This document shows positions 6,257 to 42,643 of a stretch of 64,000 nt of DNA, in pieces. The stretch's first letter is position 1; each line of letters starts with the position of its first letter. The translations under genes were made by a program, and so were the position numbers. The notes beneath the pieces were generated by a model. It saw only the letters and a program-made list of their open reading frames with translations, ran no database searches and was not told the origin of the DNA. Source of the stretch: Anaerolineae bacterium (GTDB lineage: Bacteria > Chloroflexota > Anaerolineae > Aggregatilineales > UBA3940); contig DAOTXW010000081.1 in NCBI GenBank assembly GCA_034435035.1, forward strand, positions 72,580 to 136,579, read 5' to 3'.

Positions 6257-6376
6257 GTCAGACCTTTCTACACACAGCGGGGCACGGAAAGGCAACTGCC
6301 ATCCTGATACCTGTACGCAGGCTCCCGGTGCAAGTTTCAGCCCGCCGCGCTGGCGCCGGCCTGAAAGCAGGCTATA

Positions 6377-7423
6377 ATGCCGCTGATGCGCAGGCTGCTG
6401 ATCGACCTCTGGCACTTGGTGTGGACTCCGGGCGGCGATCCCATCTACCGGCGTGAGATGGCCGGCTGGTCCTACCCTGGGCCATGGCGGAGTATCCAGC
6501 GCGGGTGCCTGCCCCTGATCGCCGTCCTGCTGGGGGGCAGTGTATGCCTGTGCAGCGGGTCGTGCGGGGTGACAGTCCTGCCATCGGCGCAGCCCCCGGC
6601 GCAGTGGCTCCTGCTGCCGCTGGCGCTGGGGGCCGGCCTGCTGGTCGGTGAATCCCTGCTGGGGGCGATCACCGGGCTGATCACGACCGCGCTGGCCGCG
6701 ACCACTGTCAGCGCGGAGATGGAGGCGCAGACCTATGGTCTGCTGCGGCTGACAGCCGTCAGCCCACGCCAGATCGTGCTGGCCAAGCTGGCAGCAGTCT
6801 TCCACCAGGTGCGCACGCCTGTGCTGGTGATGATGACCCTGCGGCTTCTTCTGCTGCTGCTGGGGCTGGTCACGGCGGCCGGGCTGACGCTGGTCGCCCT
6901 CCAGGACAGCGGCGGGGCAGCGAGCAGCCAGACGCCCCCGGCGGCTCTCCCGGTTGCCGTTCCGCCCCTTCCCGGCCTGACCGGGGCTCTGACCGCGCTG
7001 TATGTAGCGCTGGGTGTCCTGGCGCTGATGCTCATCGCGCTGTGGCTGGCGTACTATCTGCTGCGCCCCGCGCTGGACATCCTGCTCTTTGGCTCCCTGG
7101 GCATCTTCGCGTCATCGCTGGCCCGCACGCGTGCCAACGGACTGCTGACTGCCGCCGGTCTGCGGATCCTGCTGGGTGCCATTGCCTATGTGGCAGGGCA
7201 GGTGCTGTCCGCCTCCTTCTCGCTGATCAGCCTGCCGGTGTCACTGCTGCCCGGCTTCCCAACCTGGCTTGCGAGCAGCAACGCAGCCCCGGGGCTGCTG
7301 GGGATCGGCGCAGTCCTGATCGCGATCGCCATTCTGCTGGCGGTCGTGAGCGCGCAGATCGGGGCCTCTCTGTTTCTGGTGGGCGCCGCCATAGGCCGCG
7401 CACAGAGCCTCCCGTTCGGCTGA
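6377..7423 (+). CDS. ABC-2-type permease-like polytopic membrane protein (no cognate ATPase adjacent)
   Basis: Multi-TM protein. The motif TTVSAEMEAQTYGLLRLTAVSPRQIVLAKL resembles the E-x-E-x-G-T-x-E-x-L-x-x-x-P loop of ABC-2 permeases. Alternative start ATG 6386 lies just after a TATAAT (6373-6378). Confidence 0.5.
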   Translation: MPLMRRLLIDLWHLVWTPGGDPIYRREMAGWSYPGPWRSIQRGCLPLIAVLLGGSVCLCSGSCGVTVLPSAQPPAQWLLLPLALGAGLLVGESLLGAITGLITTALAATTVSAEMEAQTYGLLRLTAVSPRQIVLAKLAAVFHQVRTPVLVMMTLRLLLLLLGLVTAAGLTLVALQDSGGAASSQTPPAALPVAVPPLPGLTGALTALYVALGVLALMLIALWLAYYLLRPALDILLFGSLGIFASSLARTRANGLLTAAGLRILLGAIAYVAGQVLSASFSLISLPVSLLPGFPTWLASSNAAPGLLGIGAVLIAIAILLAVVSAQIGASLFLVGAAIGRAQSLPFG

Positions 7424-7500: not shown

Positions 7501-8544
7501 TTACGAATCCGACGAGGAATCGCCGGCGCTTTTCTGCTGCACACGCTCGCGCTCCCTGCGCCGCCGCTGGCGCAGACGGTCGCGCTCCAGTGCCCGCTCG
7601 CGGCGGCGCCTCTCAGAAAGGATCTCCTGATACTGCTGCTGGCGCTGCCGCCGGGTCAGCGGACGCTGGATGAACGGGATCTTGAAGTGCCCGGTGCGAT
7701 CCAGAACGATCAGCAGCCCGATCAGCACATAGACCATGGAAAGGAGGCGCGAGTAGCTCAAGGGCGACTCGGTGCCATCCGCCAGGAGAATCCGCGGCTG
7801 GTCAGGCCGCCAGATCTCGACGATGAAACGGCCAAAGCCTGCCATCACCAGATACGCCCCGGTCAGGATGCCCCGCTGGATACGCTCCTGGTTGCGACGG
7901 AAGATGAAATACAGCACGCCGAAGCTCAGGAAAAGCCAGAATGCCTCGTACAGCATGGTCGGATGAAAGCGGGTTTCGGCAGGCAGGCTGCGGAACTGCG
8001 GCAGCCGATTTTCCACTGATACCAGCATCCCAAACCATGTCGAGCCGGTCGGCGGGCCATACAGCTCCTGATTGATCAGGTTGCCGAAACGCCCGATGCC
8101 CTGGCCAACCAGCAGGCCAAGCAGCCCGGCGTCTGCCAGCAGCCACCCCGGCAGCTTGCGGGTGCGCGAATACAGGAGCAGCGCAATCAGTCCGCCGACC
8201 GCGCCGCCGAAGATGTTCATGCCGCCGGTGCGCGGGTTCAGAATCTCCAGCGGACGGGAGAGCGAATAAGCGTCGCTGCCGCCCAGCACCGCCTGGCCGA
8301 CATACCACAGCCTTGCGCCCAGCAGGCCCGCAATGAGTACCCACAGAAGCGCATCCCAGACGATCTCCGGATCCTGTCCTTCCATCTCGACATGCCGGGC
8401 GGCGATGAAAGCGCCGACAAAAATACCCACCGAGGCCAGGATGCCATACCAGTAAATCGGCAGGCTGCCGCCTGCGCTGGCGAACCACGGGATGCAGAAT
8501 GCAACTTCCTGCGGGGCGGAGCAGGTCACCAGTGCTTGCCACAT
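7501..8544 (-). CDS. lgt: Prolipoprotein diacylglyceryl transferase with Arg-rich C-terminal tail
   Basis: IYWYGILASVGIFVG, GGMNIFGGAVGGLIALLLY, canonical GQGIGRFGNLINQELYG, FHPTMLYEAFW. Start ATG 8544 is preceded by GAGGA 8 nt upstream; the track start GTG 8574 has no RBS. The tail is RRQRQQQYQEILSERRRRERALERDRLRQRRRRERER. Confidence 0.9.
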   Translation of the reverse strand: MWQALVTCSAPQEVAFCIPWFASAGGSLPIYWYGILASVGIFVGAFIAARHVEMEGQDPEIVWDALLWVLIAGLLGARLWYVGQAVLGGSDAYSLSRPLEILNPRTGGMNIFGGAVGGLIALLLYSRTRKLPGWLLADAGLLGLLVGQGIGRFGNLINQELYGPPTGSTWFGMLVSVENRLPQFRSLPAETRFHPTMLYEAFWLFLSFGVLYFIFRRNQERIQRGILTGAYLVMAGFGRFIVEIWRPDQPRILLADGTESPLSYSRLLSMVYVLIGLLIVLDRTGHFKIPFIQRPLTRRQRQQQYQEILSERRRRERALERDRLRQRRRRERERVQQKSAGDSSSDS

Positions 8545-8635
8545 AATTCGTATCCTCGCGCGTGAATCAACCACGTGCTCTGTGCTGCCAGAGCGTCAGA
8601 ATTATAGAGTCTTCAGGCGGTGTTTGCGAAAAAGC

Positions 8636-27938: not shown

Positions 27939-29006
27939 ATGTTCCTTGATGACATGGACTTCGCCGCAGTTGACGGGCAGAACATGCTTGGCCATATCGA
28001 CGCCCTGCCCGATCAACTGGCCGACGCATGGCGGGCGGCGCAAACCATGCCGCTGATCCCTGCCAGCGCATTGGAGCGCGTCGTGATAGTCGGTATGGGC
28101 GGCTCAGCGATCAGCGGCGATCTGCTGGCTGCGCTGGTCCAGGATACCTGCGTCCTGCCCCTGCAGGTTTTCCGTGAGTATTCACTTCCGCCTTATGCCG
28201 CAGGTCCCGGCACGCTGGTGATCGCGCTCAGCTTCTCCGGATCGACTGAAGAAACGCTCTCCGCCGCCGCCCAGGCCACAGAGCGCGGGGCGCGGCTGCT
28301 GGCGATCACCACTGGCGGGCCGCTGGCGGACCTGGCAGACCGGGCTGGCGGGGAGGTGTGGCCGATCGCCTATGACTCGCAGCCGCGGGCAGCGCTGGGC
28401 TGGCTGTACGGGCTGCTGCTGGGTGCGGCAGCTCGCCTGGGCCTGACGCCTCCGCTGGAGGCCGACATAGCGGAAGCCGTCGAACGGCTGCGGGACGACC
28501 GCGCGCGCTGGACAGCCGCTTCACCTACCAGCCGCAACCCTGCCAAGCGCGTTGCCGGGCAGATGATGGATTGCATCCCGGTGATCTGGGGGGCCGGGCT
28601 GCTGGCGCCGGTAGCCGCCCGCTGGAAGACCCAGCTCAACGAGAACGCCAAGACCGCGGCCTACGCCGAGCAGATGCCCGAGCTGAATCACAACGCCATA
28701 GTCGGCATCCTGACCCCGGAGGAACTGATGCGTCGCCACAAGTTCCAGATCGTTCAGCTTGTCTCCCGGGAGTATGACCATCCTCGCGTGGCGCTGCGCC
28801 ACCGGGCCACCGAGAGTCTGCTGCGCGAAGCCGGCATCATCGCTGAGGTCGTGCGCGCCCACGGACGCAGCCGGCTGGCTCAGCAGATGAACCTGATCCA
28901 GTTTGGCGACTACATCAGCTTCTTTCTGGCGATGGCCTACGGGGTGGACCCGACGCCTATTCCACCTATCCTGATGCTCAAAGACAGGCTGGCGGCGGCA
29001 GGCTGA
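27939..29006 (+). CDS. Bifunctional phosphoglucose/phosphomannose isomerase (SIS domains)
   Basis: VVIVGMGGSAISGDLL, ALSFSGSTEETL, and a C-terminal PGI/PMI-type domain (NENAKTAAYAEQMPELNHN). ATG 27939 has GAGAGG 5 nt upstream. Confidence 0.8.
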   Translation: MFLDDMDFAAVDGQNMLGHIDALPDQLADAWRAAQTMPLIPASALERVVIVGMGGSAISGDLLAALVQDTCVLPLQVFREYSLPPYAAGPGTLVIALSFSGSTEETLSAAAQATERGARLLAITTGGPLADLADRAGGEVWPIAYDSQPRAALGWLYGLLLGAAARLGLTPPLEADIAEAVERLRDDRARWTAASPTSRNPAKRVAGQMMDCIPVIWGAGLLAPVAARWKTQLNENAKTAAYAEQMPELNHNAIVGILTPEELMRRHKFQIVQLVSREYDHPRVALRHRATESLLREAGIIAEVVRAHGRSRLAQQMNLIQFGDYISFFLAMAYGVDPTPIPPILMLKDRLAAAG

Positions 29007-29737
29007 TGATGGAAGCTATCGCCGACAGACACGCGCAGCGCGGCGCGCCGAGCTACGTATGGCGGGCCGGGCAGGAGCGCCGGCTGGAAATGATCCACCG
29101 CTGGGCTGATACTGCCGGTGCGTGCATCCTGATTGATGGCTGCGGGGTAGGCGCTTACGCTGCCCGCCTGCTGGAGGATTCCCCGTGGGTGTTTGCCTTC
29201 GACATCGAGCTCCCGCGCGTGCGGGAAGCCCGCGCCGCGGTCCCCCTCGCGCATGTCGCCGCCGCCGAGTTTGTCCCCTACCCGGCAGATACCTTTGACC
29301 TGATCCTCTCCCATGAGGTGCTGGAGCACGTACAGGACGACCGCGCGGCACTGGCTGAGATGGCGCGGGTGCTGCGGCCCGGCGGCCGTGCGGTGATCTT
29401 CTGCCCTAACCGCTGGTATCCTTTCGAGACGCACGGCCACTACTGGCGCGGGCGCTACCACTTTGGCAATACACCCTTGATCAATTATCTGCCCGATCCG
29501 CTCCGTAACCGGCTGGCCCCCCATGTACGGGCCTACACGCGTCACGGCCTGCTGCGCCTGATCGACGGGCTGCCGCTGCGCGTCGCCTACCACACCCGCA
29601 TCTTTGGGGCCTATGACAACCTGATTACACGCTTCGGCGCGGTGGGGCGCCTGCTGCGAGCCGTGCTGCATGCCCTGGAAAAGTCGCCCGTGCGTGTGCT
29701 TGGGCTGTCCCACCTGCTGGTGCTGGAGAAGGTATGA
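29006..29737 (+). CDS. Class I SAM-dependent methyltransferase
   Basis: Motif I ILIDGCGVGAYA, then DLILSHEVLEHV and LRPGGRAVI. Its start overlaps the upstream stop (TGATG). Confidence 0.75.
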   Translation: MMEAIADRHAQRGAPSYVWRAGQERRLEMIHRWADTAGACILIDGCGVGAYAARLLEDSPWVFAFDIELPRVREARAAVPLAHVAAAEFVPYPADTFDLILSHEVLEHVQDDRAALAEMARVLRPGGRAVIFCPNRWYPFETHGHYWRGRYHFGNTPLINYLPDPLRNRLAPHVRAYTRHGLLRLIDGLPLRVAYHTRIFGAYDNLITRFGAVGRLLRAVLHALEKSPVRVLGLSHLLVLEKV

Positions 29738-30558
29738 TGGGCAGCCCCTACCCCCCGGTGCTTGATCTGCTGGAAACAGCGCGTGCAGCAGCCCGCGCCG
29801 CCGGGAATGTGATCCGGGAGCGCTACGATCAGCCGCGCCAGATCAGCGAGAAGGCGCCCCGTGATCTGGTGACCGATACCGATCATGCGGCGCAGGCGGC
29901 AGCCCTGGCCGTGATCCAGACCCGCCACCCCGATCACAGGGTGATGGCTGAGGAAGATCCCACCACCCACCTAGTTGAGGAGGGGCGCTGGCAGATCCCC
30001 GATGGAATGCTGTGGCTGGTCGATCCGCTCGATGGGACCACGAACTTCACTACGGGGCTGCCGATTTCCTGCGTGTCAGTAGGCGCGGCCTTTGACGGGC
30101 TGCCGCTGGCAGGAGCGATCTATGATCCCTACCGGGACGAGTTGTTCACTGCCGCCCTCGGACAGGGCGCCGCGCTCAACGGCCGCGCCCTGCCCGCGCT
30201 CACGCGAGTGCCATTGCAGCGGGCCATCATCAGCGCAGACTGGGCCCGCGCACCGCAGGTGCGCCACCGCGCACTCGAATGCATCCGGCTGCTGGCCCCG
30301 CACTGCCATACGGTGCGTGTGCTGGGATCGGCGGCGCTCAGCCTCGCCTACGTTGCCTGCGGACGCGCTCATCTGTACTTCAACTTTGGCCTCCAACCGT
30401 GGGATGTGGCCGCCGGGGCGGCCCTGATTCGCGAGACAGGCGGCGATCTGCGGCTGCCGAATGACAGTCCGTGGCAGCTCGGAGAACCCGCCCTGCTGAG
30501 CGCCCACCCGGCGATCCTGGATGAAGCGATTCCGCTTGTCAGCGGCCCGGCGGAATAG
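29734..30558 (+). CDS. Inositol monophosphatase family protein
   Basis: MAEEDP, WLVDPLDGTTNF and WDVAAGAALIRETGG motifs. ATGA overlap with the upstream gene. Confidence 0.85.
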   Translation: MMGSPYPPVLDLLETARAAARAAGNVIRERYDQPRQISEKAPRDLVTDTDHAAQAAALAVIQTRHPDHRVMAEEDPTTHLVEEGRWQIPDGMLWLVDPLDGTTNFTTGLPISCVSVGAAFDGLPLAGAIYDPYRDELFTAALGQGAALNGRALPALTRVPLQRAIISADWARAPQVRHRALECIRLLAPHCHTVRVLGSAALSLAYVACGRAHLYFNFGLQPWDVAAGAALIRETGGDLRLPNDSPWQLGEPALLSAHPAILDEAIPLVSGPAE

Positions 30559-30579
30559 TACACTTGTGCTAGCGAGTGA

Positions 30580-30610
30580 AAAGCCGCCCGCCGGGACGGC
30601 GGCTTTTCTG
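30580..30610 (+). terminator. Intrinsic terminator after the IMPase gene
   Basis: aagccgcc (30581-30588), loop, ggcggctttt, followed by ctg (T tract 30604-30607). Confidence 0.65.
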
Positions 30611-30687
30611 TGCATCGTGCTTCCACTACAATAAGGACAAGTCCATTGAGCATCTTCCGGCGTTTTCTGGCACCGCGGAGTAAGCAC

Positions 30688-31134
30688 ATGGGGTCGATCG
30701 AAGAACGCGCCAGGCTGGCTGCTGAACAGGTCATCGGTGATAGCAGCCTGACCGACGAGATGGACGATGCCGAAGCCTCGGCGCTGCTGGACTGGGCCGC
30801 GGGCCTGGCCCGGCAGGCCGCTGCCCAGACTCTGGAGCTGGATGATGCGGCGGCCAGCGAGATTCTGGCCGCGCGGATGCAGGATGTGCGCCGCCTGGTA
30901 CGCCGGATCAACCGGCTGATCGGGCTGCTGGGCGCCGATCCCTCAGACGAAGAGGTGGAAGAGGCGCTCCGCTCGGTGTTCGAGTCCGCCTCGGCGGTGC
31001 CCGGCCTGACGGTCCAGCTACCGATGGCGCTGGCCGACTCGGCACGCCTGATGCGTGGGCTGCCCGCCCCGGATGCGCTGGGCAGAATACTGTCCCATTT
31101 TACGGATTGGAGTGGTGATGGCGAAGCGACGTAG
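30688..31134 (+). CDS. Small acidic alpha-helical hypothetical protein
   Basis: ATG 30688 has GGAG 7 nt upstream. The 148-aa product is rich in A/E/D/L and I recognise no family. Its 3' end overlaps the PLD gene start by 17 nt. Confidence 0.5.
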   Translation: MGSIEERARLAAEQVIGDSSLTDEMDDAEASALLDWAAGLARQAAAQTLELDDAAASEILAARMQDVRRLVRRINRLIGLLGADPSDEEVEEALRSVFESASAVPGLTVQLPMALADSARLMRGLPAPDALGRILSHFTDWSGDGEAT

Positions 31135-32311
31135 CAGTTCTCGAAAAAGCTCAGCCGCCAACCAGCGCATGGTGCTGGTTTTCCTGGCTGTATTTGTCGT
31201 AGCTGCGCTCATCTATGGCATTGGACCGGCGCTGAACTCGATCGGCGACGCTGTGGGAGTTGATCTCGGTATGCCGGCACAAGAAGGCCTGCCGGATGCA
31301 ACGCAGGCGGCCGGGGATACCGGGACCACGACGGGCGGCAGTTACTACACCATCTACTTCACCGATCCAGTCATCCCCTTTGATGATGTGACCACAGGCG
31401 GGATCGAGGAGCACCTGATTGCGCTGATCGACGGCGCTCAGAGCAGCATCGACCTGGCGGTCTTCGAGTTCAACCTGCAGAACGTGGCCGATGCGTTGAT
31501 CGCCGCGCACAACCGGGGGGTGCAGGTCCGCATTGTGTATGACAATGAGCACACTGAAGAAGATCCCCAGATGGAGGAGATGATCCGCGCCGGCATCCCG
31601 GCCACGCCGGATAACCGCAGCGCGTTCATGCACAACAAGTTCTTCGTCTTCGACCAGCAGCTGGTGTGGCTTGGCTCGTGGAACGTGACCATCAATGATA
31701 CCTATCGCAACAACAACAACGCGATGGTGATCCGCTCCCAGCAGCTCGCACAGAACTACACTACCGAGTTCGAGGAGATGTTTGCCGGGGAGTTCGGCCC
31801 GCGCTCGCCTGCCAATACACCTAACCCGTCCTTTACCATCAACGGTATCCTGCTGGAGAATTTCTTCTCGCCCGAAGACGAGGTGATGCCGCATCTGGTT
31901 GATTTTGTGCGCCAGGCACAGACGAGCATTCACTTCATGGCGTTTTCTTACACCGACTACGATCTGGCCAGCGCCATGATGGACCGCGCCGCCGCCGGGG
32001 CGGAAGTATCCGGCATCTTCGAGGTGCGCGGAGCGGATACCGAATCCTCCGAGTGCAACACTCTGCTGGGCGCCGGTCTGGATGTGCGGCTGGATGGCAA
32101 CCCGCGCACCTTCCATCATAAAGTCATCATCATCGATGGAGCAGCCGTGGCGATTGGCTCCTTCAACTTCAGCAGCAATGCCTCCGAATCCAATGACGAG
32201 AACCTGCTGATCCTCTACGATCCGGCGGTCGCCGCCCAGTACGAGCAGGAGTTCGTCCGCCGCATGGCCGAGGCGCAGATGCCGGTTGGAGGCGTCTGCC
32301 AGGCCGATTAA
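31118..32311 (+). CDS. Membrane-anchored phospholipase D superfamily protein with two intact HKD motifs
   Basis: Basic N-terminus MAKRRSSSRKSS followed by TM MVLVFLAVFVVAALIYGIG. HKD-1 is FMHNKFFVFDQQLVWLGSWNVT and HKD-2 is FHHKVIIIDGAAVAIGSFNFS. Confidence 0.85.
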   Translation: MAKRRSSSRKSSAANQRMVLVFLAVFVVAALIYGIGPALNSIGDAVGVDLGMPAQEGLPDATQAAGDTGTTTGGSYYTIYFTDPVIPFDDVTTGGIEEHLIALIDGAQSSIDLAVFEFNLQNVADALIAAHNRGVQVRIVYDNEHTEEDPQMEEMIRAGIPATPDNRSAFMHNKFFVFDQQLVWLGSWNVTINDTYRNNNNAMVIRSQQLAQNYTTEFEEMFAGEFGPRSPANTPNPSFTINGILLENFFSPEDEVMPHLVDFVRQAQTSIHFMAFSYTDYDLASAMMDRAAAGAEVSGIFEVRGADTESSECNTLLGAGLDVRLDGNPRTFHHKVIIIDGAAVAIGSFNFSSNASESNDENLLILYDPAVAAQYEQEFVRRMAEAQMPVGGVCQAD

Positions 32312-32349
32312 GCGATCTTGAGCAGCAGTGTGCCAGGGAGAGAGTCAGC

Positions 32350-35040
32350 ATGCAAATCCGTTTTGTGGAAGCTCCTAACAATTTCTATATCGGCGCATCC
32401 GCCGATCCCCAGACCGGCGATATCTTCGAAGATCTGCCGATCTACTATGATGCCCGTCACCTGACCACACACGGGGTGATCCTGGGCATGACGGGCAGCG
32501 GCAAGACCGGCCTCGGCATCACCCTGATCGAGGAGGCGGTCATCGATAAGATCCCCACCATCATCATCGATCCCAAAGGGGATATCACCAATATCCTGCT
32601 GGCCTTCCCGGACCTGACCGCCGAGAACTTCCGCCCCTGGGTGCACCCCGAGACTCCCCAGTCGATCGACGAGGATGCCCGCCGGGCCGCGACTGTCTGG
32701 CGCGAGGGCCTTTCCGAGTGGGGCATCACGAACGACCGCATCCAGGAATTCCGCCGGGCCGCAAAGTTCAGCATCTACACCCCCGGCTCGGAAGCCGGCC
32801 TGCAGGTCAGCATTCTGCAGTCCTTCGCGGTTCCGCGCGAAGGGTGGGCCGGCAACGAGGAACAGCTGCGCGAGCGCATCACCGGCATGGTCACGGCGCT
32901 GCTGGCCCTGATCGGCATCGATGCGCAGCCCGTTGAGGATCGCGAGCATATCCTGCTGTCGAATATCTTTGAATACAACTGGCGGAACGGCGTGGATCTG
33001 TCGATGGAGCAGCTGATCCTCCAGGTGCAGCGCCCCCCGTTTACCAAGCTGGGCGTGTTTGATGTCGAGACGCTGTTCCCTGAGAAAGATCGCTTCAAGC
33101 TGGCTCAGAAGCTCAACAACATCATTGCCGCGCCCAACTTCCAGAACTGGATCAAGGGCGAGCCGCTGGACGTGGGCGCATTGCTGTCCACCGCTGAGGG
33201 CTACCCACGCACTACGATCTTCTACCTGGCTCACCTCAACGATGTTGAGCGCCAGTTCATCATCACCCTGCTGCTGCAGAGTGTGCTGGCCTGGATGCGC
33301 GCCCAGACCGGCTCCACCAGCCTGCGCGCCCTCATCTACATCGATGAGGTGTTCGGCATGTTCCCACCCTATCCGCGCAACCCGCCTACTAAAGAGCCTA
33401 TCATGCGGCTGCTCAAGCAGGCGCGTGCCTATGGCATCGGGATGCTGGTCGCCACGCAGAACCCCGCTGATCTGGACTATAAGGGCCTGTCCAACGCCGG
33501 GACGTGGTTCATCGGCAAGATGCAGACGGATAATGACAAGAATCGGGTGCTGGAGGGGCTGGACAGCGCCCGCGACGCCTCGTCCGGGCTGGATATCCGC
33601 GTCGTCGGCGATCAGCTCAACCGGCTCAGGCCGCGCCAGTTCATCCTGCATGATGTGCATGAGCAGAATACACCGATCCTGATGACGACCCGCTGGACCA
33701 TGTCATACCTGCGCGGCCCGCTGACCCGTGAAGAGGTCGCTCGCCTGATGCAGAACCAGCGGGCGGCAGCGCAGGCGGCAGCACCGCCGCCGGCTCATCC
33801 CAGCTACTTTGCGGCAGCCCCTGCGCCGGACAGCGGCCCGTTCAGCGCAGCCTCGCCCACCTACAGCGGCCGCGATCCCTCTGGCCCGGCCTTCCCCGGT
33901 GGCGGCGGCGGCGGCGAAGCCCCGCCGGTGTATGGCGCGCCCGCAGGCAGCCTGCCGCCCTCGGAGCGCCCTGCTCCGCCCGGCTTCTCAGCGGTCCAGC
34001 CTGTCATCCCCAGTGCGGTGCAGCAGTACTTCCTGCCCACCGAGTACGCCGTTGAACAGGCCATCAAGCACTGGGAACAGCGGATGGGTCAGCCGGCGAT
34101 CGACGTGCAGACGAATAAACGCCTGCTCTACCGTCCCTCCCTGCTGGCGCAGCTCCAGGTGCGCTTCAACCATACACCAACCAGCTCATCCGAGATACTC
34201 TGGTACGCCTTCGTGGTGCCCAACCTGCCCACCATGACCTACCTGGACTGGTCAGAATACCAGTCTGAACCCTTCGACCCGCGCTCGCTCGACCGCGAGC
34301 CCTTCGTCCGCCCCTACTACGGCGAAGTGCCGCAGTCGCTCAGCAAAGGCGCCGGCTTCAAGGAGCTGCAGGCCAGCCTGGTAGACTGGGTGTACAACAA
34401 TGCCCGGATGGTCGTCCTGCAGAACCCGACGCTCAAGATGACCAGCGCCCTGGGAGAAAGCCGCCGGGACTTCGTGGCCCGGGTTCGCCAGGCGGCCCGC
34501 GAAGCGCGCGACGCCGAACTGGACGCACTCACCGATAAATATCAGCGCAAGCTCCAGGCGCTGGAGGACCGCTACCAGACAAAGGCTATGCGCCTGGACT
34601 CCCATCGCGCTGAGGTCGAGGGACGCCGGCAGGAGGAACTGGTTACGGGCGCCGAAGCTGTCATGCGGCTGATGAAGGGCAGCGTCTACAACACCATCTC
34701 CAAGTCCAGCCGCCTGCGCCGCATGACCAGCCAGTCCGAAGATCGGCAGCAACTGATGGAACAGGAGCTGGCAGACATCACAGAACAGATGGAAACCTAC
34801 GAAAACGAACTCAGGGACCGGCTGGCCGAACTGGCAGAGAAGTGGAAAGACATTGCCAACCAGATCGTTGAAGTGCCCATCGCGCCGCTGAAGAAGGATA
34901 TCAGCTTCGTGCTGTTCGGGATCGGCTGGGTGCCGTACTGGGATGTGGTCGTCAATGGCAGCCCGCTGATTCTGCCTGCTTCGTCGTCCGGCCTGACACA
35001 GGCGCAGGATCCCGGCTCCGGCGGAGGCGGCTACTACTAA
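32350..35040 (+). CDS. HerA/FtsK-superfamily P-loop ATPase (DUF87/DUF853-like) with Pro/Gly-rich linker and ~370-aa coiled-coil C-terminal region
   Basis: HGVILGMTGSGKTGLGITLIEE...IIIDPKGDITN (Walker A plus the KGD motif typical of this clade), Walker B ALIYIDEVF, and VATQNPADLDYKGLSNAGTWFIGKMQTDNDK. Low complexity at about nt 33763-34030. Heptad-like C-terminal part. Confidence 0.7.
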   Translation: MQIRFVEAPNNFYIGASADPQTGDIFEDLPIYYDARHLTTHGVILGMTGSGKTGLGITLIEEAVIDKIPTIIIDPKGDITNILLAFPDLTAENFRPWVHPETPQSIDEDARRAATVWREGLSEWGITNDRIQEFRRAAKFSIYTPGSEAGLQVSILQSFAVPREGWAGNEEQLRERITGMVTALLALIGIDAQPVEDREHILLSNIFEYNWRNGVDLSMEQLILQVQRPPFTKLGVFDVETLFPEKDRFKLAQKLNNIIAAPNFQNWIKGEPLDVGALLSTAEGYPRTTIFYLAHLNDVERQFIITLLLQSVLAWMRAQTGSTSLRALIYIDEVFGMFPPYPRNPPTKEPIMRLLKQARAYGIGMLVATQNPADLDYKGLSNAGTWFIGKMQTDNDKNRVLEGLDSARDASSGLDIRVVGDQLNRLRPRQFILHDVHEQNTPILMTTRWTMSYLRGPLTREEVARLMQNQRAAAQAAAPPPAHPSYFAAAPAPDSGPFSAASPTYSGRDPSGPAFPGGGGGGEAPPVYGAPAGSLPPSERPAPPGFSAVQPVIPSAVQQYFLPTEYAVEQAIKHWEQRMGQPAIDVQTNKRLLYRPSLLAQLQVRFNHTPTSSSEILWYAFVVPNLPTMTYLDWSEYQSEPFDPRSLDREPFVRPYYGEVPQSLSKGAGFKELQASLVDWVYNNARMVVLQNPTLKMTSALGESRRDFVARVRQAAREARDAELDALTDKYQRKLQALEDRYQTKAMRLDSHRAEVEGRRQEELVTGAEAVMRLMKGSVYNTISKSSRLRRMTSQSEDRQQLMEQELADITEQMETYENELRDRLAELAEKWKDIANQIVEVPIAPLKKDISFVLFGIGWVPYWDVVVNGSPLILPASSSGLTQAQDPGSGGGGYY

Positions 35041-35065
35041 GCCGCTGAAGATCGTACTGCCATCG

Positions 35066-35099
35066 AGAGCTCCGGCCTGCATCAGCCGGGGCTCTTTTG
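35066..35099 (+). terminator. Intrinsic terminator after the ATPase gene
   Basis: gagctccgg (35067-35075) / ccggggctc (35086-35094), followed by ttttgc. Confidence 0.6.
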
Positions 35100-35233
35100 C
35101 ATCCACCGGCGTGCCGATTTCAGGCGCCGGGCGCGTTCCAAGCCGGGGCGCGATCGGCTGCGAGCCTGCTCACCGGGAGGGGGCGAGGATCCGCAGCATG
35201 GCCCTTCCAGCACGAAATGCACCCCGGCTGCAC

Positions 35234-35262
35234 TTGACATCCTCAGCGACTGGCGGCATAAT
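35234..35262 (+). promoter_or_regulatory. Consensus sigma-A promoter of the pheST leader
   Basis: TTGACA (35234-35239), 17 nt, CATAAT (35257-35262). Confidence 0.65.
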
Positions 35263-35269
35263 GAGCCTA

Positions 35270-35580
35270 ACTCAATATCTCTCGCACAGGCAGTGATGGA
35301 GACGGGTCTGCGGCGCGAAGGCGCCGCCAGGGAGATCGGGCCACAGACTGAAAGCCCGGTCAGGCCGCTGGCCGCAGGCGTTCCCTCCGGAGCCGACGGT
35401 TGAAAGGGCCAGCGCCCGAGTAGGTCGTTCCGGGTTGCCCGCCGTTACCGGGCGGCCAATCGCGCTCATCCGGGCGCTGCTGGCGCAGAGGGGGCATCCC
35501 GGGCGACCGGTTGCCCGGCAGGGTGGTACCGCGCGAGCACACCAGCTCCCGTCCCTGATAGGGGGACGGAGCTTTTTTGT
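35270..35580 (+). promoter_or_regulatory. T-box leader (tRNA-Phe sensing) with terminator/antiterminator
   Basis: T-box sequence agggtggtaccgcg at 35519-35533. Terminator agctcccgtccc / gggggacggagct (35544-35573) plus tttttt. Stem I candidate: GGAG (35298-35301) pairs with CTCC (35385-35388), and CTGCGGC (35308-35314) pairs with GCCGCAG (35371-35377). These helices flank an internal loop whose 3' side is gcgTTCc, with TTC at 35381-35383 (Phe codon). Confidence 0.85.
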
Positions 35581-35621
35581 TTGGCTCTCAGTCACAGCCA
35601 TTCAGGAGGAGGTAGCCGATC

Positions 35622-36647
35622 GTGATGCTGGACGCACTGACAGAGATCGAGAAATCTACGCTGGACCGCCTGAAGGCGGTGCAGGACAGCCAGTCGCTCT
35701 CCCAGCTGTATGGAGCCATTCTGGGCAAGAAGGGCGAGCTGACTGCTATCCTGCGATCGGTAGGACAGCTCCCGGCCGACCAGCGGCCCGCCGTCGGGCA
35801 GCGGGCTAACGAAGTGCGCCGAGCCCTGGAGGCGGCTTTCGCTGAGCGCGAGCAGACCATCCGCTCGCATGAGCTGACCGCCAGCCTGGAGCAGGGCGCC
35901 ATCGACGTGACCATGCCGGGGCGCCCCATCTCGCCGGGGCGCATGCATCCGGTCACACAGACCCTGCACGAGATCTTTGCGATCTGGGCCGAGATGGGCT
36001 TCCAGGTCTACCGCAGCCGCGAGGTGGAGGCGGACGATCTCAACTTCACTCTGCTGAATATGCCGCCGCATCACCCGGCGCGCGATATGTGGGCGACCTT
36101 CTACACCACGCAGGAGGGTGTGATCCTGCGCACTCACACTTCCCCCGGACAGATCCATGCCATGCGCGCGTTTGCGCCGGAGCCAATCCGGGTGATCCTG
36201 CCGGGCATGGTCTTCCGGTATGAGCAGGTCAGCGCCCGCAGTGAGTTTCAGTTTCATCAGGTTGAAGGGCTGGCGATCGGCCACAACATCCGCTTCACCG
36301 ATCTGAAAGGTACGATCGCCGCCTTCGGCCGCCGCTTCTACGGAACTGCACAGGTGCGCTACCGGTGCTCGCATTTCCCATTCACTGAGCCAAGCATGGA
36401 AGTCGATGTCGAGTGCATCCTGTGCGCCGGCAACGGCTGCCCCGTCTGCAAGCACACCGGCTGGCTGGAGATCGCCGGCTGCGGCATGGTACACCCGGTC
36501 GTGCTTAAGAACGGCGGCTATGACCCGGCCGAGTTCTCTGGATTCGCGTTCGGGTTTGGCGTAGAGCGCATGACCATGCTCAAGCATTCCATCGAGGAGA
36601 TCCGCTACTTCTGGGGAAATGATCTGCGGTTCCTGGAGCAATTCTGA
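35622..36647 (+). CDS. pheS: Phenylalanine--tRNA ligase alpha subunit
   Basis: Class II aaRS motifs (HPARDMWATFY, FRYE, GFAFGFGVERM). The start is GTG 35622 or ATG 35625, after AGGAGGAGG. Confidence 0.95.
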   Translation: MMLDALTEIEKSTLDRLKAVQDSQSLSQLYGAILGKKGELTAILRSVGQLPADQRPAVGQRANEVRRALEAAFAEREQTIRSHELTASLEQGAIDVTMPGRPISPGRMHPVTQTLHEIFAIWAEMGFQVYRSREVEADDLNFTLLNMPPHHPARDMWATFYTTQEGVILRTHTSPGQIHAMRAFAPEPIRVILPGMVFRYEQVSARSEFQFHQVEGLAIGHNIRFTDLKGTIAAFGRRFYGTAQVRYRCSHFPFTEPSMEVDVECILCAGNGCPVCKHTGWLEIAGCGMVHPVVLKNGGYDPAEFSGFAFGFGVERMTMLKHSIEEIRYFWGNDLRFLEQF

Positions 36648-36678
36648 TCGCCCCGCCCTGCCGACGGAGTATAGAACG

Positions 36679-39372
36679 ATGCGTGTTCCGCTTTCATGGC
36701 TCAAAGAGTATGTTGAGATTACCCTGCCGGTCGAGGAGCTGGCCGCGCGGCTGACCCTGGCCGGGCTGGAAGTTGGCAGCATTGAATACCTCGGCATCCC
36801 GGCTGAGGAGGTAGCCAGCGGCCACCGCGCCGTCCCAACGTCGAGCGATCACCTGGTCTGGGATCGCGAGAAGATCGTGGTGGCTCACATCCGGGAGGTC
36901 CGGGCCCATCCCAATGCCGACCGGCTTGTGCTCGCTATCGTCGATTCCGGGATCGGCGAGATGGAGACGGTGGTAACAGGAGCGCCCAACCTGTATCCGT
37001 ACCGTGATCAGGGGCCACTATCCCCGCCACTGGTTGCCCCCTATGCCCGGGAAGGCGCCGAAGTCATCGATGGGCACAGAGATGACGGCTCGCGGCTGAT
37101 CATCAAGCCGCGCAGCCTGCGTGGGATCGACAACCGCAGCATGGTCTGCTCAGCCAAGGAGCTGGGGCTGTCCGATGATCACGAGGGCATCCTGCTGCTG
37201 GAAACCGATGCCCCGCCCGGGACGCCCCTGCAGGATGTGCTGGGGGACGCAATCCTCGACATCGACATCACGCCCAACATGGCCCGCAACGCCTCCATTC
37301 TGGGCGTCGCCCGCGAGATCGCGGCGCTGACCGGCCAGCCGCTGCGCTATCCGCCGGATACCATCACCGCGGCTGGCCCGCCCATCGCCGGGCAGGTCCG
37401 CATCGAAATCCGCGAGCCTGACCTCAATCCGCGCTTCACCCTGGCGCTGATCAAGGGGGTGTCCATCGCCCCCTCGCCGGAGTGGATGCAGCGCAGGCTG
37501 CGGCTGGCCGGCATGCGTCCGATCAACAACATCGTCGATATCACCAACTACGTGATGCTGGAGATCGGCCAGCCGCTGCACGCCTTTGACTACGATGTGC
37601 TGGTCAAGCGCGCGGGTGGCAGCGCCCCAACCATCATCACCCGGCTGCCCGCGCCCGGCGAGACGCTGGTCACGCTGGACAGCGTCGTGCGCACCCTCGA
37701 TCCGTTTACGATTCTGGTAGCCGACACGGCTGGCGCGCTCAGCCTGGGCGGCATCATGGGCGGGGCCGAATCCGAGATCTATGATGCCGCTTCTTACCAG
37801 CTCGACGCTGCGGGAATCCCGCTGGCCGAAGACGAGCCACTTCAGCACGGTAAGACGGACGCCCGACCCGCCAGCACCGTAAACGTGCTGCTGGAGGCGG
37901 CCGCCTGGGATTTCATCTCCATCCGCCGCACCTTACAGGCACAGCGCGAGCGCGGCCGCGAGATCAGTTCAGAGGCAGGGGCCCGCTTCAGCCGCGGCGT
38001 TCACCCGGCCCTGGCGATGGTCGGCCTGCGCCGCGCCATTGAACTGATGCGCCAGATCGCCGGCGGCCAGATCGCTGACGGCGTACTGGACAGCTATCCA
38101 CGCCCGGCCCCCGCCGTAGTTGCGGATCTGAGCCTCCACGAGGTCGAGCGCATCATCGGCGTGCCAATCCCCTCCGACGAGGTGGCGCGCATCCTGCGCG
38201 GCCTGGAGTTCTCCGTGCAGCCCGGGGAGCCAGGAGTGCTGCGGGTGACTGTGCCTGAACACCGCCTTGACATCGGGCTGCGCCCCGGCGATCCGCACCA
38301 GGAGATCGGCGCCCTGGTCGCACAGGCCGATCTGATCGAGGAGATCGCCCGCATCTACGGATACGACCGGCTGCCGGAAACCCGGATCGCGGATGTCATG
38401 CCGCCGCTGCACAGCCCCGGCGACCTCCAGCACGAGGAGCGGGTCCGCGATGCGCTGGTGCGAGCCGGGCTGCAGGAGGTGATCACCTACCGGCTGACTC
38501 ATCCGGACCGTGAGGCCCTGCTCACCCCGCCCGGCCTGCCATCGGGCTGGCCCGATCTTCCCTATGTCACATTGGCCAACCCGATGTCGCAGGACAGGCT
38601 GGTCATGCGACATACCCTGCTGGCCTCGATGCTGGACATCGTGGCAGCCAATGCCCGCTGGCGCGACCGCCAGATGCTGTTCGAGATCGGGAGGGTGTAC
38701 CTGCCCATCGAGGGCGAGATGTTGCCCGATGAGCCGCACCATGTCTGCCTCGCGATGACCGGCCCCCGCCACCTGCCCACCTGGCAGGCAGGCCGCGCCG
38801 CCAGCGAGCTGATGGATTACTTCGACCTGAAAGGTGTTGTCGAAAGTCTTCTCAGCGCGGTGAAGGCGGCCAATGCCCGCTTCGAACCTGCCCAGCACAG
38901 CACCTTCTTCCCGGGCCGCGCCGCCAGCCTGACGGTGGCCGGGAAGATCGTAGGCACCCTGGGCGAGCTGCACCCGCTGGTGCGCAGGGCGTTCGGCCTG
39001 CCGGAGCAGCCGGTGCTGGTCGCCGAGCTTGACCTGGCAGGGCTGGCGGCGGACGGGCCGGCTCTGGGCCGCCTGCAGCCGGTGTCATCCTTCCCCGCCA
39101 TCTACCAGGACATCGCGGTGGTGGTGCCAGAGAGCGTCCCGGCCGCCGATCTGGAGGCCACAATCCGTGAGGCCGGGGGCGGGCTTCTGCGGGGGGTGCG
39201 CCTGTTCGATGTCTACCGGGGGGAGCAGATCGGCGCAGACAATAAGAGCCTGGCCTATTCCCTGACCTTCCAGGCAGATGACAAGACGCTGCGTGACCGC
39301 GACGCCGATGCGGTACGGGCGAAGATCGTTCGGGCGCTGACGAGCCGCTTCGGCGCGAAGCTGAGAGCTTGA
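36679..39372 (+). CDS. pheT: Phenylalanine--tRNA ligase beta subunit
   Basis: MRVPLSWLKEYVEI N-terminus, with tRNA-binding, B3/4, B5 and FDX-ACB regions in order. The start was moved from the track's 36619 to ATG 36679. Confidence 0.95.
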   Translation: MRVPLSWLKEYVEITLPVEELAARLTLAGLEVGSIEYLGIPAEEVASGHRAVPTSSDHLVWDREKIVVAHIREVRAHPNADRLVLAIVDSGIGEMETVVTGAPNLYPYRDQGPLSPPLVAPYAREGAEVIDGHRDDGSRLIIKPRSLRGIDNRSMVCSAKELGLSDDHEGILLLETDAPPGTPLQDVLGDAILDIDITPNMARNASILGVAREIAALTGQPLRYPPDTITAAGPPIAGQVRIEIREPDLNPRFTLALIKGVSIAPSPEWMQRRLRLAGMRPINNIVDITNYVMLEIGQPLHAFDYDVLVKRAGGSAPTIITRLPAPGETLVTLDSVVRTLDPFTILVADTAGALSLGGIMGGAESEIYDAASYQLDAAGIPLAEDEPLQHGKTDARPASTVNVLLEAAAWDFISIRRTLQAQRERGREISSEAGARFSRGVHPALAMVGLRRAIELMRQIAGGQIADGVLDSYPRPAPAVVADLSLHEVERIIGVPIPSDEVARILRGLEFSVQPGEPGVLRVTVPEHRLDIGLRPGDPHQEIGALVAQADLIEEIARIYGYDRLPETRIADVMPPLHSPGDLQHEERVRDALVRAGLQEVITYRLTHPDREALLTPPGLPSGWPDLPYVTLANPMSQDRLVMRHTLLASMLDIVAANARWRDRQMLFEIGRVYLPIEGEMLPDEPHHVCLAMTGPRHLPTWQAGRAASELMDYFDLKGVVESLLSAVKAANARFEPAQHSTFFPGRAASLTVAGKIVGTLGELHPLVRRAFGLPEQPVLVAELDLAGLAADGPALGRLQPVSSFPAIYQDIAVVVPESVPAADLEATIREAGGGLLRGVRLFDVYRGEQIGADNKSLAYSLTFQADDKTLRDRDADAVRAKIVRALTSRFGAKLRA

Positions 39373-41839: not shown

Positions 41840-42643
41840 ATGGCGCCTGACCTGGGCCGCATCGGCCCCTATTATCTGCGCTCCTACACCCTGCTGCTCG
41901 ATCTGGCTATTCTGCTGGGGCTGGCCCTGCTCGCCTGGCATGGCCGGCGGGCCGGCGAGCGTCCTGCTGACTGGGTGGATGCCGGCCTGAGCGCGCTTGC
42001 AGCCGGGGTCCTCGGCGGCCGCCTGGGCCACGTCATGATCTATCGTGACTATTTTGCCGAACACCCCGATCGCATTCTGCAGGTATGGCGCGGCGGCCTG
42101 GACTGGCACGGCGCGATACTGGCCGGGCTGATCGGGCTGGCGATCGGCTGCCGGTGGCGCCGGCTGCGTTTCCGTGCCGTGGCCGATGCGCTGGCGCTGG
42201 CGCTGCCGCTGGGCGCACTGCTTACCTACACTGGCTGCCTGATGGGCAGCTGCGGCCACGGGCGCGAGGTGGCCTCGCTGGCCCAGTATCCTGCCCCACT
42301 GGTGCTGGAGCTGCCTGATCTTTACGGCGTGCGCGCCCCGCGCCTGGCCAGCCAGCTCTACGGGCTTGCCTGGAGCGCCGTGATCCTCGCCCTGTCGCTG
42401 GCGCAGGCCCGCCGCGAGGGCCGCCCCGGCGTGCGTCTGTGGATCGCCCTTGCCCTTCTATCAGCCGGCGCCTTTGCTGTGGGCTTCACCCGCGGCGACT
42501 CGATCCCGATGCTGGGCGCGCTGCGCCTTGACCAGGTGCTGGATCTGGCAATGGCCGCGGTCGCTCTGGCGGGCCTGCTGCTTGCCGGGCGCCGCACCCC
42601 CACGTATACCCTCTATGGGCCTGCTGGATTCGTACGCAGATAA
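41840..42643 (+). CDS. Divergent Lgt-family (prolipoprotein diacylglyceryl transferase-like) membrane protein
   Basis: YYLRSYTLLLDLAILLG, GVLGGRLGHVMIY and VWRGGLDWHGAILAGLIGL resemble Lgt. The canonical GR-x-GN-x-x-N-x-E-x-x-G block is replaced by TGCLMGSCGHGREV. Confidence 0.6.
   Translation: MAPDLGRIGPYYLRSYTLLLDLAILLGLALLAWHGRRAGERPADWVDAGLSALAAGVLGGRLGHVMIYRDYFAEHPDRILQVWRGGLDWHGAILAGLIGLAIGCRWRRLRFRAVADALALALPLGALLTYTGCLMGSCGHGREVASLAQYPAPLVLELPDLYGVRAPRLASQLYGLAWSAVILALSLAQARREGRPGVRLWIALALLSAGAFAVGFTRGDSIPMLGALRLDQVLDLAMAAVALAGLLLAGRRTPTYTLYGPAGFVRR

Follow-up and report, generated by a model that had tools for sequence, protein, structure and literature searches.

Three co-directional genes in a 64,000-nucleotide stretch of DNA from an Anaerolineae bacterium (positions 72,580 to 136,579 of contig DAOTXW010000081.1, GenBank assembly GCA_034435035.1; "the window" hereafter means this whole stretch) place a phospholipase D (PLD)-superfamily enzyme beside a HerA/FtsK-like ATPase, and the question they raise is what such a combination does and whether its parts belong together. 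The original prediction, made from the sequence alone, had placed three open reading frames (ORFs) here, and the ORF list agrees with it at every coordinate: ORF1 (30688-31134, 148 amino acids (aa)), the PLD gene (31118-32311, 397 aa), and the ATPase gene (32350-35040, 896 aa), all on the forward strand. Because all three proteins have homologues elsewhere, the operon is not a set of chance ORFs. We conclude that ORF1 and PLD form a conserved core cassette and that the ATPase is a frequent but lineage-restricted neighbor of it; as a whole, the chromosomal, vertically inherited operon looks like uncharacterized housekeeping machinery, not anti-phage defense.

To see how the ATPase is embedded in other genomes, we searched for its relatives and compared their surroundings. 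A scan of genome contigs with the single ATPase protein returned nothing; an alignment-based scan succeeded and gave at least 537 stretches in species-representative genomes, the best 80 of which we examined. These 80 relatives align over their full length and come from Chloroflexota, Nitrospirota, Planctomycetota, the Chlorobi group, Acidimicrobiia, KSB1, and other groups, with the closest relatives of both the ATPase and PLD annotated as Anaerolineae or Chloroflexota. Clustering the neighboring genes across 78 ATPase loci identified a PLD orthologue as the only recurrent neighbor, present at 18 loci (upstream of the ATPase in 16, co-directional with it in 94%); no other shared neighbor extends beyond a single subclade. 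The ATPase usually stands alone, its tightly coupled neighbors elsewhere are heterogeneous, and the clustering of the 78 loci revealed no adjacent cytoplasmic effector (NurA, Sir2, DUF4297, or TdpB). A neighbor-joining tree distributes the PLD-linked loci over two of the four major clades and at least six subclades whose other neighbors differ, and both of the clades that hold these 18 loci belong to Chloroflexota.

Viewed from the PLD side, the association is tightest with ORF1. Here we sampled the best 80 of at least 555 metagenomic PLD loci, a sample that is therefore biased toward closer relatives. Of the 61 loci with at least 600 nucleotides (nt) of upstream sequence, 41 have an ORF1 homologue directly ahead of PLD, among them loci at only 43 to 48% PLD identity. 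Where at least 3 kb of downstream sequence is available (34 loci), the ATPase occurs in 14, and its presence follows PLD identity: 9 of 12 loci at 55% or more, 5 of 15 at 48 to 55%, and none of 7 below 48%. ORF1 and the ATPase are the only widely shared partners in the PLD-side neighbor clustering, and three close PLD homologues that were picked irrespective of the ATPase are each part of an ORF1-PLD-ATPase array, which in one case has a PAS histidine kinase inserted. By these counts (18 of 78 ATPase loci; 41 of 61 and 14 of 34 PLD loci), the genes grouped by the original prediction are indeed co-conserved in other genomes. They do not form one indivisible unit; the triad is a tight ORF1-PLD pair plus the ATPase.

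The arrangement of the linked loci conveys the same picture. The PLD and ATPase genes are adjacent in the window and in loci L006, L007, L008, L012, L019, L030, L037, and L050, and where they are adjacent, the ATPase gene lies downstream of PLD in the same orientation, separated from it by a median of about 100 nt. Other genes intervene in L010, L038, L044, and L048, and in L003 and L004 the two are 5 to 7 kb apart. In L026 the order is ATPase-ORF1-PLD, a rearrangement that leaves ORF1 and PLD adjacent, so the pair stays together. The intervening gene at L088 (8290-10038) encodes a PAS/HisKA/HATPase_c sensor kinase and the one at L010 (8553-9854) a 433-aa protein with HEAT-like repeats, the latter recognized by eye only.

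We then asked which branch of the PLD superfamily the enzyme represents. The Pfam domain PLDc_2 matches PLD twice (E 8e-50; 168.5 bits against a cut-off of 27), and a regular-expression search recovered both HKD motifs, HNKFFVFDQQLVWLGSWN at 31631-31684 (aa 172-189) and HHKVIIIDGAAVAIGSFN at 32114-32167 (aa 333-350). The motifs, which the original prediction had called intact, retain every signature residue across 22 PLD orthologues: H172, K174, D179, G186, S187, and N189 in the first and H333, K335, D340, G347, S348, and N350 in the second. A family profile built from these 22 orthologues and compared with the PDB finds its nearest solved relatives by sequence in the endonuclease Nuc (9.3e-29), MitoPLD/Zucchini (9.5e-23), and NucT (3.1e-15), followed at a distance by the phospholipase SpPLD (2.2e-6), PLD3 (1.7e-5), and phosphatidylserine synthase (3e-3). 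The fit to Nuc, Zucchini, and NucT is thus some 10^20-fold better than that to the lipid PLDs. Models of cardiolipin synthases score far below their cut-offs on PLD (bac_cardiolipin 33.7 bits versus 290; ClsB 19.9 versus 281; PRK12452 27.3 versus 787), as does the phosphatidylserine synthase model (15.9 versus 314). The possibility raised at the outset that PLD might cluster with cardiolipin or phosphatidylserine synthases is therefore answered by the profile, which groups it with nucleases, and by sequence PLD belongs to the Nuc/Zucchini/NucT branch of the superfamily.

PLD also carries the sole strongly hydrophobic segment among the three proteins, at aa 18-36 (Kyte-Doolittle 2.75), following the tail MAKRRSSSRKSS. 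We place the signal anchor at approximately aa 18-40 (31169-31237), with the basic tail MAKRRSSSRKSSAANQR before it and the hydropathy maximum of 2.75 at aa 18. Among 118 full-length PLD orthologues, 113 have a hydrophobic N-terminal segment, 107 have a net-positive tail ahead of it, and 23 have a lipobox instead. Because nearly all orthologues possess a signal anchor or a lipobox, the prediction that a basic stretch and a transmembrane anchor hold an extracytoplasmic catalytic domain at the membrane is well supported. The acidity of that domain, described below, is extreme and would not be expected of a nucleic acid-binding enzyme of nuclease type.

The comparison with characterized enzymes is instructive in both directions. 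PLD shares with Nuc, NucT, and Zucchini the HKD chemistry and the GS that follows each HKD motif, and each half of the 397-aa protein aligns with one whole monomer of Nuc or Zucchini. Zucchini is likewise anchored via an N-terminal transmembrane helix. The mammalian 5'-3' exonucleases PLD3 and PLD4 have a short cytoplasmic tail, a single transmembrane anchor, and a non-cytoplasmic double-HKD domain that acts on nucleic acid, an architecture that PLD resembles even though the sequence match is weak (E 1.7e-5); they are far more distant from it in sequence than Nuc is, and they are eukaryotic lysosomal enzymes. NucT, too, is a membrane-associated, extracytoplasmic PLD nuclease, acting in DNA salvage, where it serves purine salvage, and in transformation (PMC5714352). 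Unlike the homodimers of about 155 to 220 aa formed by Nuc, NucT, and Zucchini, PLD has its two halves fused in one 397-aa chain, a very acidic ectodomain, a dedicated upstream partner gene in ORF1, and a nuclease activity that is predicted only.

ORF1 itself is acidic (isoelectric point (pI) 4.3) and, judged by charge and hydropathy, has neither a transmembrane segment nor a signal peptide. Its description as an acidic 148-aa protein of no recognizable family has held up: Pfam, NCBIfam, and PADLOC contain no match, and a search of a 5.8-billion-protein collection returned ORF1 alone. We therefore assembled its family from the fetched loci by iterated hidden Markov model searches. The resulting 10 sequences share the motif AxEQIxGDSSLTDxLDDxEAxxLLxWG, with D27, A30, L33, and W36 invariant, and the family profile has no relative in Pfam or the PDB, so that ORF1 founds a small orphan family. 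ORF1 evolves faster than PLD in the same loci (36-51% versus 59-65% identity).

We infer that ORF1 is a cytoplasmic partner of PLD. The layout recalls that of NucA-NuiA from Anabaena and of barnase-barstar, in which the gene of an exported phosphodiesterase adjoins that of a small, acidic, signal-less protein that is translated first. Cytoplasmic inhibitors of secreted nucleases are an established principle in which the inhibitor is expressed first, and in engineered NuiA-NucA co-expression it mattered that the inhibitor gene stood in first place (PMC13522737). ORF1 departs from these inhibitors in that its sequence resembles neither NuiA nor barstar nor any family, and its binding to PLD is putative. 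A separate candidate role for ORF1, as a WXG100-type substrate of type VII secretion driven by the FtsK-like ATPase, was rejected: the conserved tryptophan is followed by G or A without consistent WxG spacing, no WXG100 Pfam model matches, and the PLD signals are of the Sec type.

Turning to the ATPase, a motif search located GMTGSGKT at aa 46, IDPKGD at aa 73, LIYIDE at aa 328, and ATQNP at aa 368, along with the C-terminal end GSGGGGYY, all as originally read, and the Walker motifs are invariant among the orthologues. Two domain models match above threshold, DUF87 at 36.3 bits (cut-off 23.2) and FtsK_SpoIIIE at 27.2 (cut-off 24), each restricted to the P-loop region. HerA_C/DUF853 reaches only 18.6 bits, under its cut-off of 22. 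Of the proposed "HerA/FtsK/DUF853 type," the HerA/FtsK part therefore stands, resting on these two domains and on the fold match below, and the DUF853 label is unsupported at threshold.

The AlphaFold2 (AF2) model of the whole ATPase, with a predicted local distance difference test (pLDDT) score of 86, divides the protein into three parts. The first is a HerA-like P-loop core (aa 1-478, 32350-33783; pLDDT ≈90) in which a large helical insertion separates Walker A (aa 46-53) from Walker B (aa 328-333). Foldseek matches this core in the PDB to HerA-NurA (7.8e-12), SIR2/HerA, Sulfolobus HerA, DndH-C, DUF4297-HerA, and TdpAB, all with a probability of 1.0. In the model, the P-loop strand (42-45) comes after no more than two short strands (at 11-18 and at 25-34) plus a short helix, which leaves no room for the six strands of a HAS barrel; as modeled, the core is HerA-like but lacks this barrel. 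Hydropathy reveals no transmembrane segment in the ATPase, which is predicted to be cytoplasmic.

A disordered linker rich in Pro, Gly, and Ala follows (aa 479-544, 33784-33981). It bears out the Pro/Gly-rich linker of the original prediction, with pLDDT below 50 for residues 483-538, and its length differs between orthologues. The third part is a family-specific C-terminal domain (aa 545-896, 33982-35040), for which a separate AF2 model has a pLDDT of 90.9. This region had been described as a long coiled coil; the long helices are there, but the model is that of a folded domain with a β-sheet base and one antiparallel hairpin made of two helices (H705-775, about 70 residues, and H780-837, about 58). 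No fold in the PDB or BFVD matches it at E < 1e-3. Only weak coiled-coil similarities to Wzc, p85 iSH2, and SMC were found, and we rejected a Wzc-like or SMC-like module because these are low-confidence matches (E ≥ 2.8e-3, TM-score ≤ 0.3).

The residues invariant in the C-terminal domain include Y594, W634, R720, E723, E769, G777, S784, W832, K848, G857, W860, and P862. Conservation extends to the tip of the hairpin (aa 770-800), which is basic (pI 11.5) and retains L774, G777, T782, S784, R785, R788, and R791. At aa 775-795 (34672-34734) the tip has the basic, hydroxyl-rich consensus KGRTxYTLSRxSRxRR, which here reads KGSVYNTISKSSRLRRM. This motif could serve in DNA binding, membrane binding, or docking on the ATPase ring. 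At 50% identity, 1642 clusters contain the domain; in the best 150 clusters listed, it lies at the C-terminal end of proteins of about 830 to 1075 aa or of shorter sequences, which are probably truncated gene calls. A literature search on the ATPase family returned nothing relevant, so that the established unrelated role that would have spoken against the initial reading was not found.

HerA-clade ATPases of known function act on nucleic acids. The ATPase resembles several of them (archaeal and Deinococcus HerA-NurA, Sir2-HerA/Nezha, DUF4297-HerA, TdpAB, and DndH), which are its best structural matches, in its RecA-like core with a helical insertion and in its Walker A, DPxG, and Walker B motifs. 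It differs from them in lacking the HAS barrel and an encoded cytoplasmic effector partner, in its extra 350-aa C-terminal domain of unmatched fold, and in scoring far below the cut-offs of their family models. Seven IMG/VR contigs (L169-L175) encode relatives of the ATPase domain only, 394 to 543 aa long and 30 to 45% identical to residues ≈10-469. These relatives (match at ≈5001-6400) have no C-terminal domain and lie within arrays of small co-directional phage-like ORFs; several have a gene of about 110 to 170 aa without a PHROG match directly upstream. Their own PHROG matches are partial, to phrog_7035 (function unknown) and phrog_2666 ("terminase large subunit").

In sequence, the window matches a contig of the metagenome-assembled genome GCA_964451875.1 identically. 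The surroundings of the operon are those of core genes. Upstream lie mreB, a TsaD-family (PF00814) gene that we read as tsaB-like, genes for a GNAT acetyltransferase, PGI, an S-adenosylmethionine (SAM) methyltransferase, and inositol monophosphatase (IMPase); downstream lie pheS, pheT, lgt, and nadE. For a comparison of divergence, we used five loci with a close triad orthologue (60-62% ATPase identity), four of which also have upstream flanking genes in common with the window. In these loci the ATPase (60-62%) and PLD (59-65%) are about as similar as PGI (54-63%), IMPase (53-61%), and the TsaD-like protein (59-62%). Because the ATPase and PLD diverge like the flanking housekeeping genes, the sequence comparison indicates vertical inheritance under purifying selection. 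The GC content of the region (0.60-0.65) is inside the local range of 0.61-0.69, and a horizontally acquired island was rejected on this ground and on the matching divergence. On 72,556 plasmids the full-length ATPase has no relative save one remote core match, and on 50,697 phage genomes it has none.

These data bear directly on whether the locus is a defense or DNA-processing module built from a HerA ATPase and a nuclease, as originally suggested. An anti-phage or anti-plasmid system of the HerA-plus-effector type does draw on domain-level PADLOC matches: the ATPase to mad8 (1.5e-15, core only) and to HerA models (1e-9 or weaker, aa 331-407 only), PLD to DrmC (4e-18) as well as to MkoB and DpdK, and a methyltransferase encoded 1.4 kb upstream to mad2 (2.7e-9, SAM-binding region only). 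These matches are all partial or generic, however, and fall below family cut-offs where such exist; in NCBIfam the scores are 70.4 bits against 133 for DrmC_I, 31 against 100 for DpdK, and 18.6 against 800 for HerA_antiphage. The partner genes of DISARM, Mokosh, Dpd, MADS, Sir2-HerA, and DUF4297-HerA are missing from the locus. No convincing defense gene flanks it either, ten flanking proteins yielding nothing in PADLOC but the generic SAM-domain match to mad2, so an association with a defense island is not seen. With PLD exported and the ATPase cytoplasmic, a HerA-effector complex is topologically implausible. Together with the housekeeping surroundings, the divergence matching that of the neighbors, the lack of a compositional anomaly, and the absence of the full-length ATPase from the plasmids and phages searched, these observations leave that reading unsupported, and we consider a defense system very improbable.

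The methyltransferase deserves separate mention because its mad2 match lies less than 3 kb from the mad8 match of the ATPase. MADS is an eight-gene operon found in defense hotspots of Proteobacteria (bioRxiv 10.1101/2023.03.30.534895), and a MADS-like system was rejected here since both matches are to generic domains and six of the eight components are missing. The gene (29006-29737, 243 aa) encodes a small class-I SAM enzyme that is syntenic, shares 67 to 76% identity with its syntenic orthologues, has no N6-methyltransferase motif by sequence inspection, and belongs to a separate, terminator-separated transcription unit. Having tested the defining components and context of MADS, DISARM, Mokosh, Dpd, Sir2-HerA, and DUF4297-HerA systems and found them wanting, we place the triad outside all of these. 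The view that the combination is not a described system is upheld more broadly: no PADLOC, Pfam, or NCBIfam model describes the triad, and a literature search for HerA plus PLD gave nothing relevant.

What, then, might the three proteins do? The account we favor, tentatively and somewhat short of an even chance, is a composite in which PLD processes extracellular nucleic acid, ORF1 is its cytoplasmic partner, and the pair is coupled at the pathway level to a cytoplasmic DNA motor. ORF1 and PLD are translationally coupled, and ORF1, which is made first, would act as an inhibitor or holdase that keeps PLD harmless or export-competent before secretion, by analogy with NuiA-NucA and barstar-barnase. 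PLD is inserted N-in, C-out by its signal anchor, or as a lipoprotein in some orthologues, holding its pseudo-dimeric 2xHKD domain outside the membrane on a flexible linker of about 45 residues. There, most probably, it cleaves phosphodiester bonds of extracellular nucleic acid, as homology to Nuc, Zucchini, and NucT suggests. The ATPase, by analogy with the HerA clade, would form a ring, a hexameric nucleic-acid translocase whose core is tethered via the disordered linker to the C-terminal domain with its long helical arm and basic tip. The linkage of PLD and the ATPase in two Chloroflexota clades would then be best accounted for by pathway-level cooperation or co-regulation in extracellular DNA handling, in which DNA would be degraded or processed outside, followed by import, salvage, or processing inside. 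The coupling would have to be at the pathway or regulatory level, since the membrane lies between PLD and the ATPase and the PLD tail is not linkage-specific. The data show the gene structure, families, export signals, fold, conservation, linkage statistics, and non-mobile housekeeping context; we infer the substrate of PLD, what ORF1 does, that the ATPase forms a hexamer and translocates DNA, and that the two units share a pathway.

This composite finds parallels in DNA-uptake machineries such as B. subtilis NucA/ComFA, H. pylori NucT/ComB4, and the archaeal Ced system with CedB, which likewise combine an external nuclease with an internal ATPase of the FtsK/HerA superfamily or another kind. 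Among NCBIfam models, those of CedB and CedD match the ATPase best (1e-9, P-loop region only). It departs from these machineries in having no linked channel, pilus, or DNA-receptor gene and no transmembrane segment in the ATPase, and the score against the Ced models is 38 bits where the cut-off is 700.

In its favor, PLD is the only neighbor of the ATPase that recurs over subclades whose other neighbors differ. A number of observations weigh against it. Neither the operon nor the annotated regions of the window contain a channel or competence gene. The conserved basic, Ser-rich tail of PLD, considered as a possible contact with the ATPase, was rejected in that role because tails or lipoboxes are equally present in ATPase-linked and unlinked PLDs; not being specific to the linked loci, it gives no sign of trans-membrane contact. 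Of the 32 well-flanked Chloroflexota ATPase loci in the two clades concerned, 18 are PLD-linked and 14 are without PLD, the other two ATPase clades, holding most of the non-Chloroflexota members, include no PLD-linked locus, and the ATPase is absent from 20 of the 34 PLD loci with at least 3 kb downstream. Given this partial linkage and the PLD-free clades, the ATPase must work without PLD. The ectodomain (31370-32311) is very acidic, with a bulk net charge of about -31 and a pI of 4.3 (range 4.1 to 4.5; 38 of 38 orthologues measured), and described PLD nucleases have an electropositive substrate groove; in Zucchini and NucT, acidic patches also flank a narrow basic groove (PMC5714352). A compact double-HKD enzyme with nuclease-like loops, SpPLD, is a true phospholipase (PMC8004604). 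ORF1, finally, resembles no known inhibitor when its family profile is compared with Pfam and the PDB.

The same partial linkage (lacking in 59% of the PLD loci and, for ATPase loci of Chloroflexota that are well flanked, in about 44%) would follow if the operon held two independent functions, a self-contained ORF1-PLD cassette and an autonomous housekeeping ATPase motor acting, for example, in chromosome or DNA maintenance, with adjacency a matter of inherited synteny or shared regulation only. The multi-phylum distribution of the ATPase, usually alone among heterogeneous neighbors, the position of the two proteins on opposite membrane sides, and the intervention of other genes such as the PAS histidine kinase of L088 and the 433-aa protein of L010 are consistent with such a division. 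It accounts less readily for PLD being the one gene that returns across subclades in which all remaining neighbors have changed, for the proximity that outlasts rearrangement (the gene order of L026; the 5 to 7 kb spacing in L003 and L004), and for the downstream, same-strand placement of an adjacent ATPase about 100 nt away, and we judge it unlikely, if still the main rival. A more improbable proposal is an envelope or lipid module, in which exported PLD would hydrolyze or transfer phosphodiester-linked lipids or wall polymers on the external side of the membrane and ORF1 and the ATPase would act in envelope remodeling. Envelope genes predominate in the window (mreBCD, PBP2, two lgt, and glycosyltransferases), the acidic ectodomain fits poorly with a nucleic-acid binder, and SpPLD, a compact double-HKD enzyme with GS motifs, is itself a phospholipase, which is also how some sources annotate PLD orthologues. 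An ICMT/PEMT-like membrane methyltransferase gene directly follows the ATPase in 8 loci, and MurJ-like genes are nearby in one subclade. Set against this are the family profile, which prefers Nuc, Zucchini, and NucT (1e-29 to 1e-15) to SpPLD (2e-6) and phosphatidylserine synthase (3e-3), the 20 to 34 bits reached by cardiolipin synthase models with cut-offs of 281 to 787, and, as noted above, the action of HerA-clade ATPases of known function on nucleic acids.

The interest of the locus lies mainly in the ATPase family, which is very large, multi-phylum, and wholly uncharacterized. Individually, PLD and the ATPase each belong to a known superfamily, the former as a fused-dimer, anchored member of its nuclease branch and the latter as a HerA-clade variant, and ORF1 is an orphan. 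It is a long shot, in our estimation, that the 830- to 1000-aa ATPases constitute an unrecognized class of housekeeping nucleic-acid motor that in Anaerolineae is wired to a surface-tethered Nuc-type nuclease and its partner, for DNA acquisition or salvage without canonical competence ATPases. Were the pathway link of the composite account true, it would establish how a sizeable group of filamentous, debris-scavenging, hard-to-culture bacteria processes extracellular DNA and would give a first function to this currently unannotated "DUF87" family; were it false, PLD and the ATPase would be two ordinary uncharacterized conserved genes that are neighbors by chance. We know of no described inhibitor or protein partner of a PLD-type nuclease, and ORF1 could be the first. 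The locus also carries a caution for defense mining, as co-directional HerA-like and PLD genes give domain-level matches to MADS, DISARM, and Mokosh, while here the two are topologically separated, vertically inherited core genes.

With respect to expression, the boundaries and junctions of the operon can be traced in the sequence. ORF1 and PLD overlap by 17 nt, as first read, the stop codon TAG of ORF1 lying at 31132-31134 and the ATG of PLD at 31118, with GGAG 6 nt 5' of that ATG. The 38-nt gap between PLD and the ATPase likewise contains the proposed ribosome-binding site, the Shine-Dalgarno-like GGGAGAGAG at 32337-32345 on the forward strand, 4 nt before the ATG of the ATPase. Both bracketing terminators of the original prediction fold stably. 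The first is a GC-rich hairpin with U/A runs on either side (30578-30608; -18.9 kcal/mol, z -2.1), found on both strands by the terminator scan. This bidirectional, intrinsic-terminator-like site closes the upstream inositol monophosphatase gene and delimits the operon on its 5' side. The second, an intrinsic-terminator-like hairpin on the forward strand followed by UUUUG (35065-35096; -24.7 kcal/mol, z -3.9; 0 of 200 shuffles equally stable), is the 3' boundary, and a simple terminator scan missed it because its U run has only four U.

On the forward strand, the terminator scan called no hairpin after 31188, hence none at either junction or in the ATPase gene; the site ending there (31174-31188) is a weak 5-pair stem within the 5' end of the PLD gene. 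In view of the lack of terminator-like hairpins at the gene junctions and in the ATPase gene, a single transcription unit is plausible for the three genes. The hexamer TACAAT noted as a candidate -10 element is present at 30627-30632 on the forward strand, but as a promoter element it is poor, with TTTTCT (3 of 6) in the -35 position and no call from the promoter scan.

Several further features of the ATPase loci emerged from the comparison. In one Anaerolineales subclade (L031, L038, L039, L041, L043, L044, L048, and L054) the ATPase is followed by a gene for a membrane protein of about 195 aa, which by eye only resembles an ICMT/PEMT-type methyltransferase with an RHP(I/L)Y motif, and in the same subclade (L031, L038, L044, L048, and L049) an apparent sigma-factor/anti-sigma pair, again judged by eye, lies upstream of the ATPase. 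Full-length ATPase relatives also occur on contigs binned as archaea (Bathyarchaeia and Methanofastidiosum) or assorted bacterial phyla (L023, L035, L072, L029, L042, L047, L052, and L059). On the tree, these nest among Chloroflexota sequences, which suggests mis-binning or horizontal transfer.

Farther out in the window lie mreC, the gene for PBP2, a second lgt, and glycosyltransferase genes. The two prolipoprotein diacylglyceryl transferase (Lgt) genes are at 7501-8574 on the reverse strand and ≈41840-42643 on the forward strand, and the pair is relevant only since some PLD orthologues are lipoproteins. Just beyond the 3' boundary of the operon, a promoter-like site (35234-35262, TTGACA-17-CATAAT, 11 of 12) precedes pheST. 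Rfam gives no match at its gathering threshold in 29000-37000; below threshold, a T-box match spans 35284-35559 with 19.9 bits (gathering score 93; E 0.022) and contains the canonical AGGGUGGUACCGCG box, with UUC (Phe) where the specifier aligns. Just before the ribosome-binding site of pheS stands a terminator hairpin (35549-35569; -20.7 kcal/mol, z -4.0) followed by UUUUUUG, and the region 35234-35620 is likely a GC-rich T-box leader of pheST.

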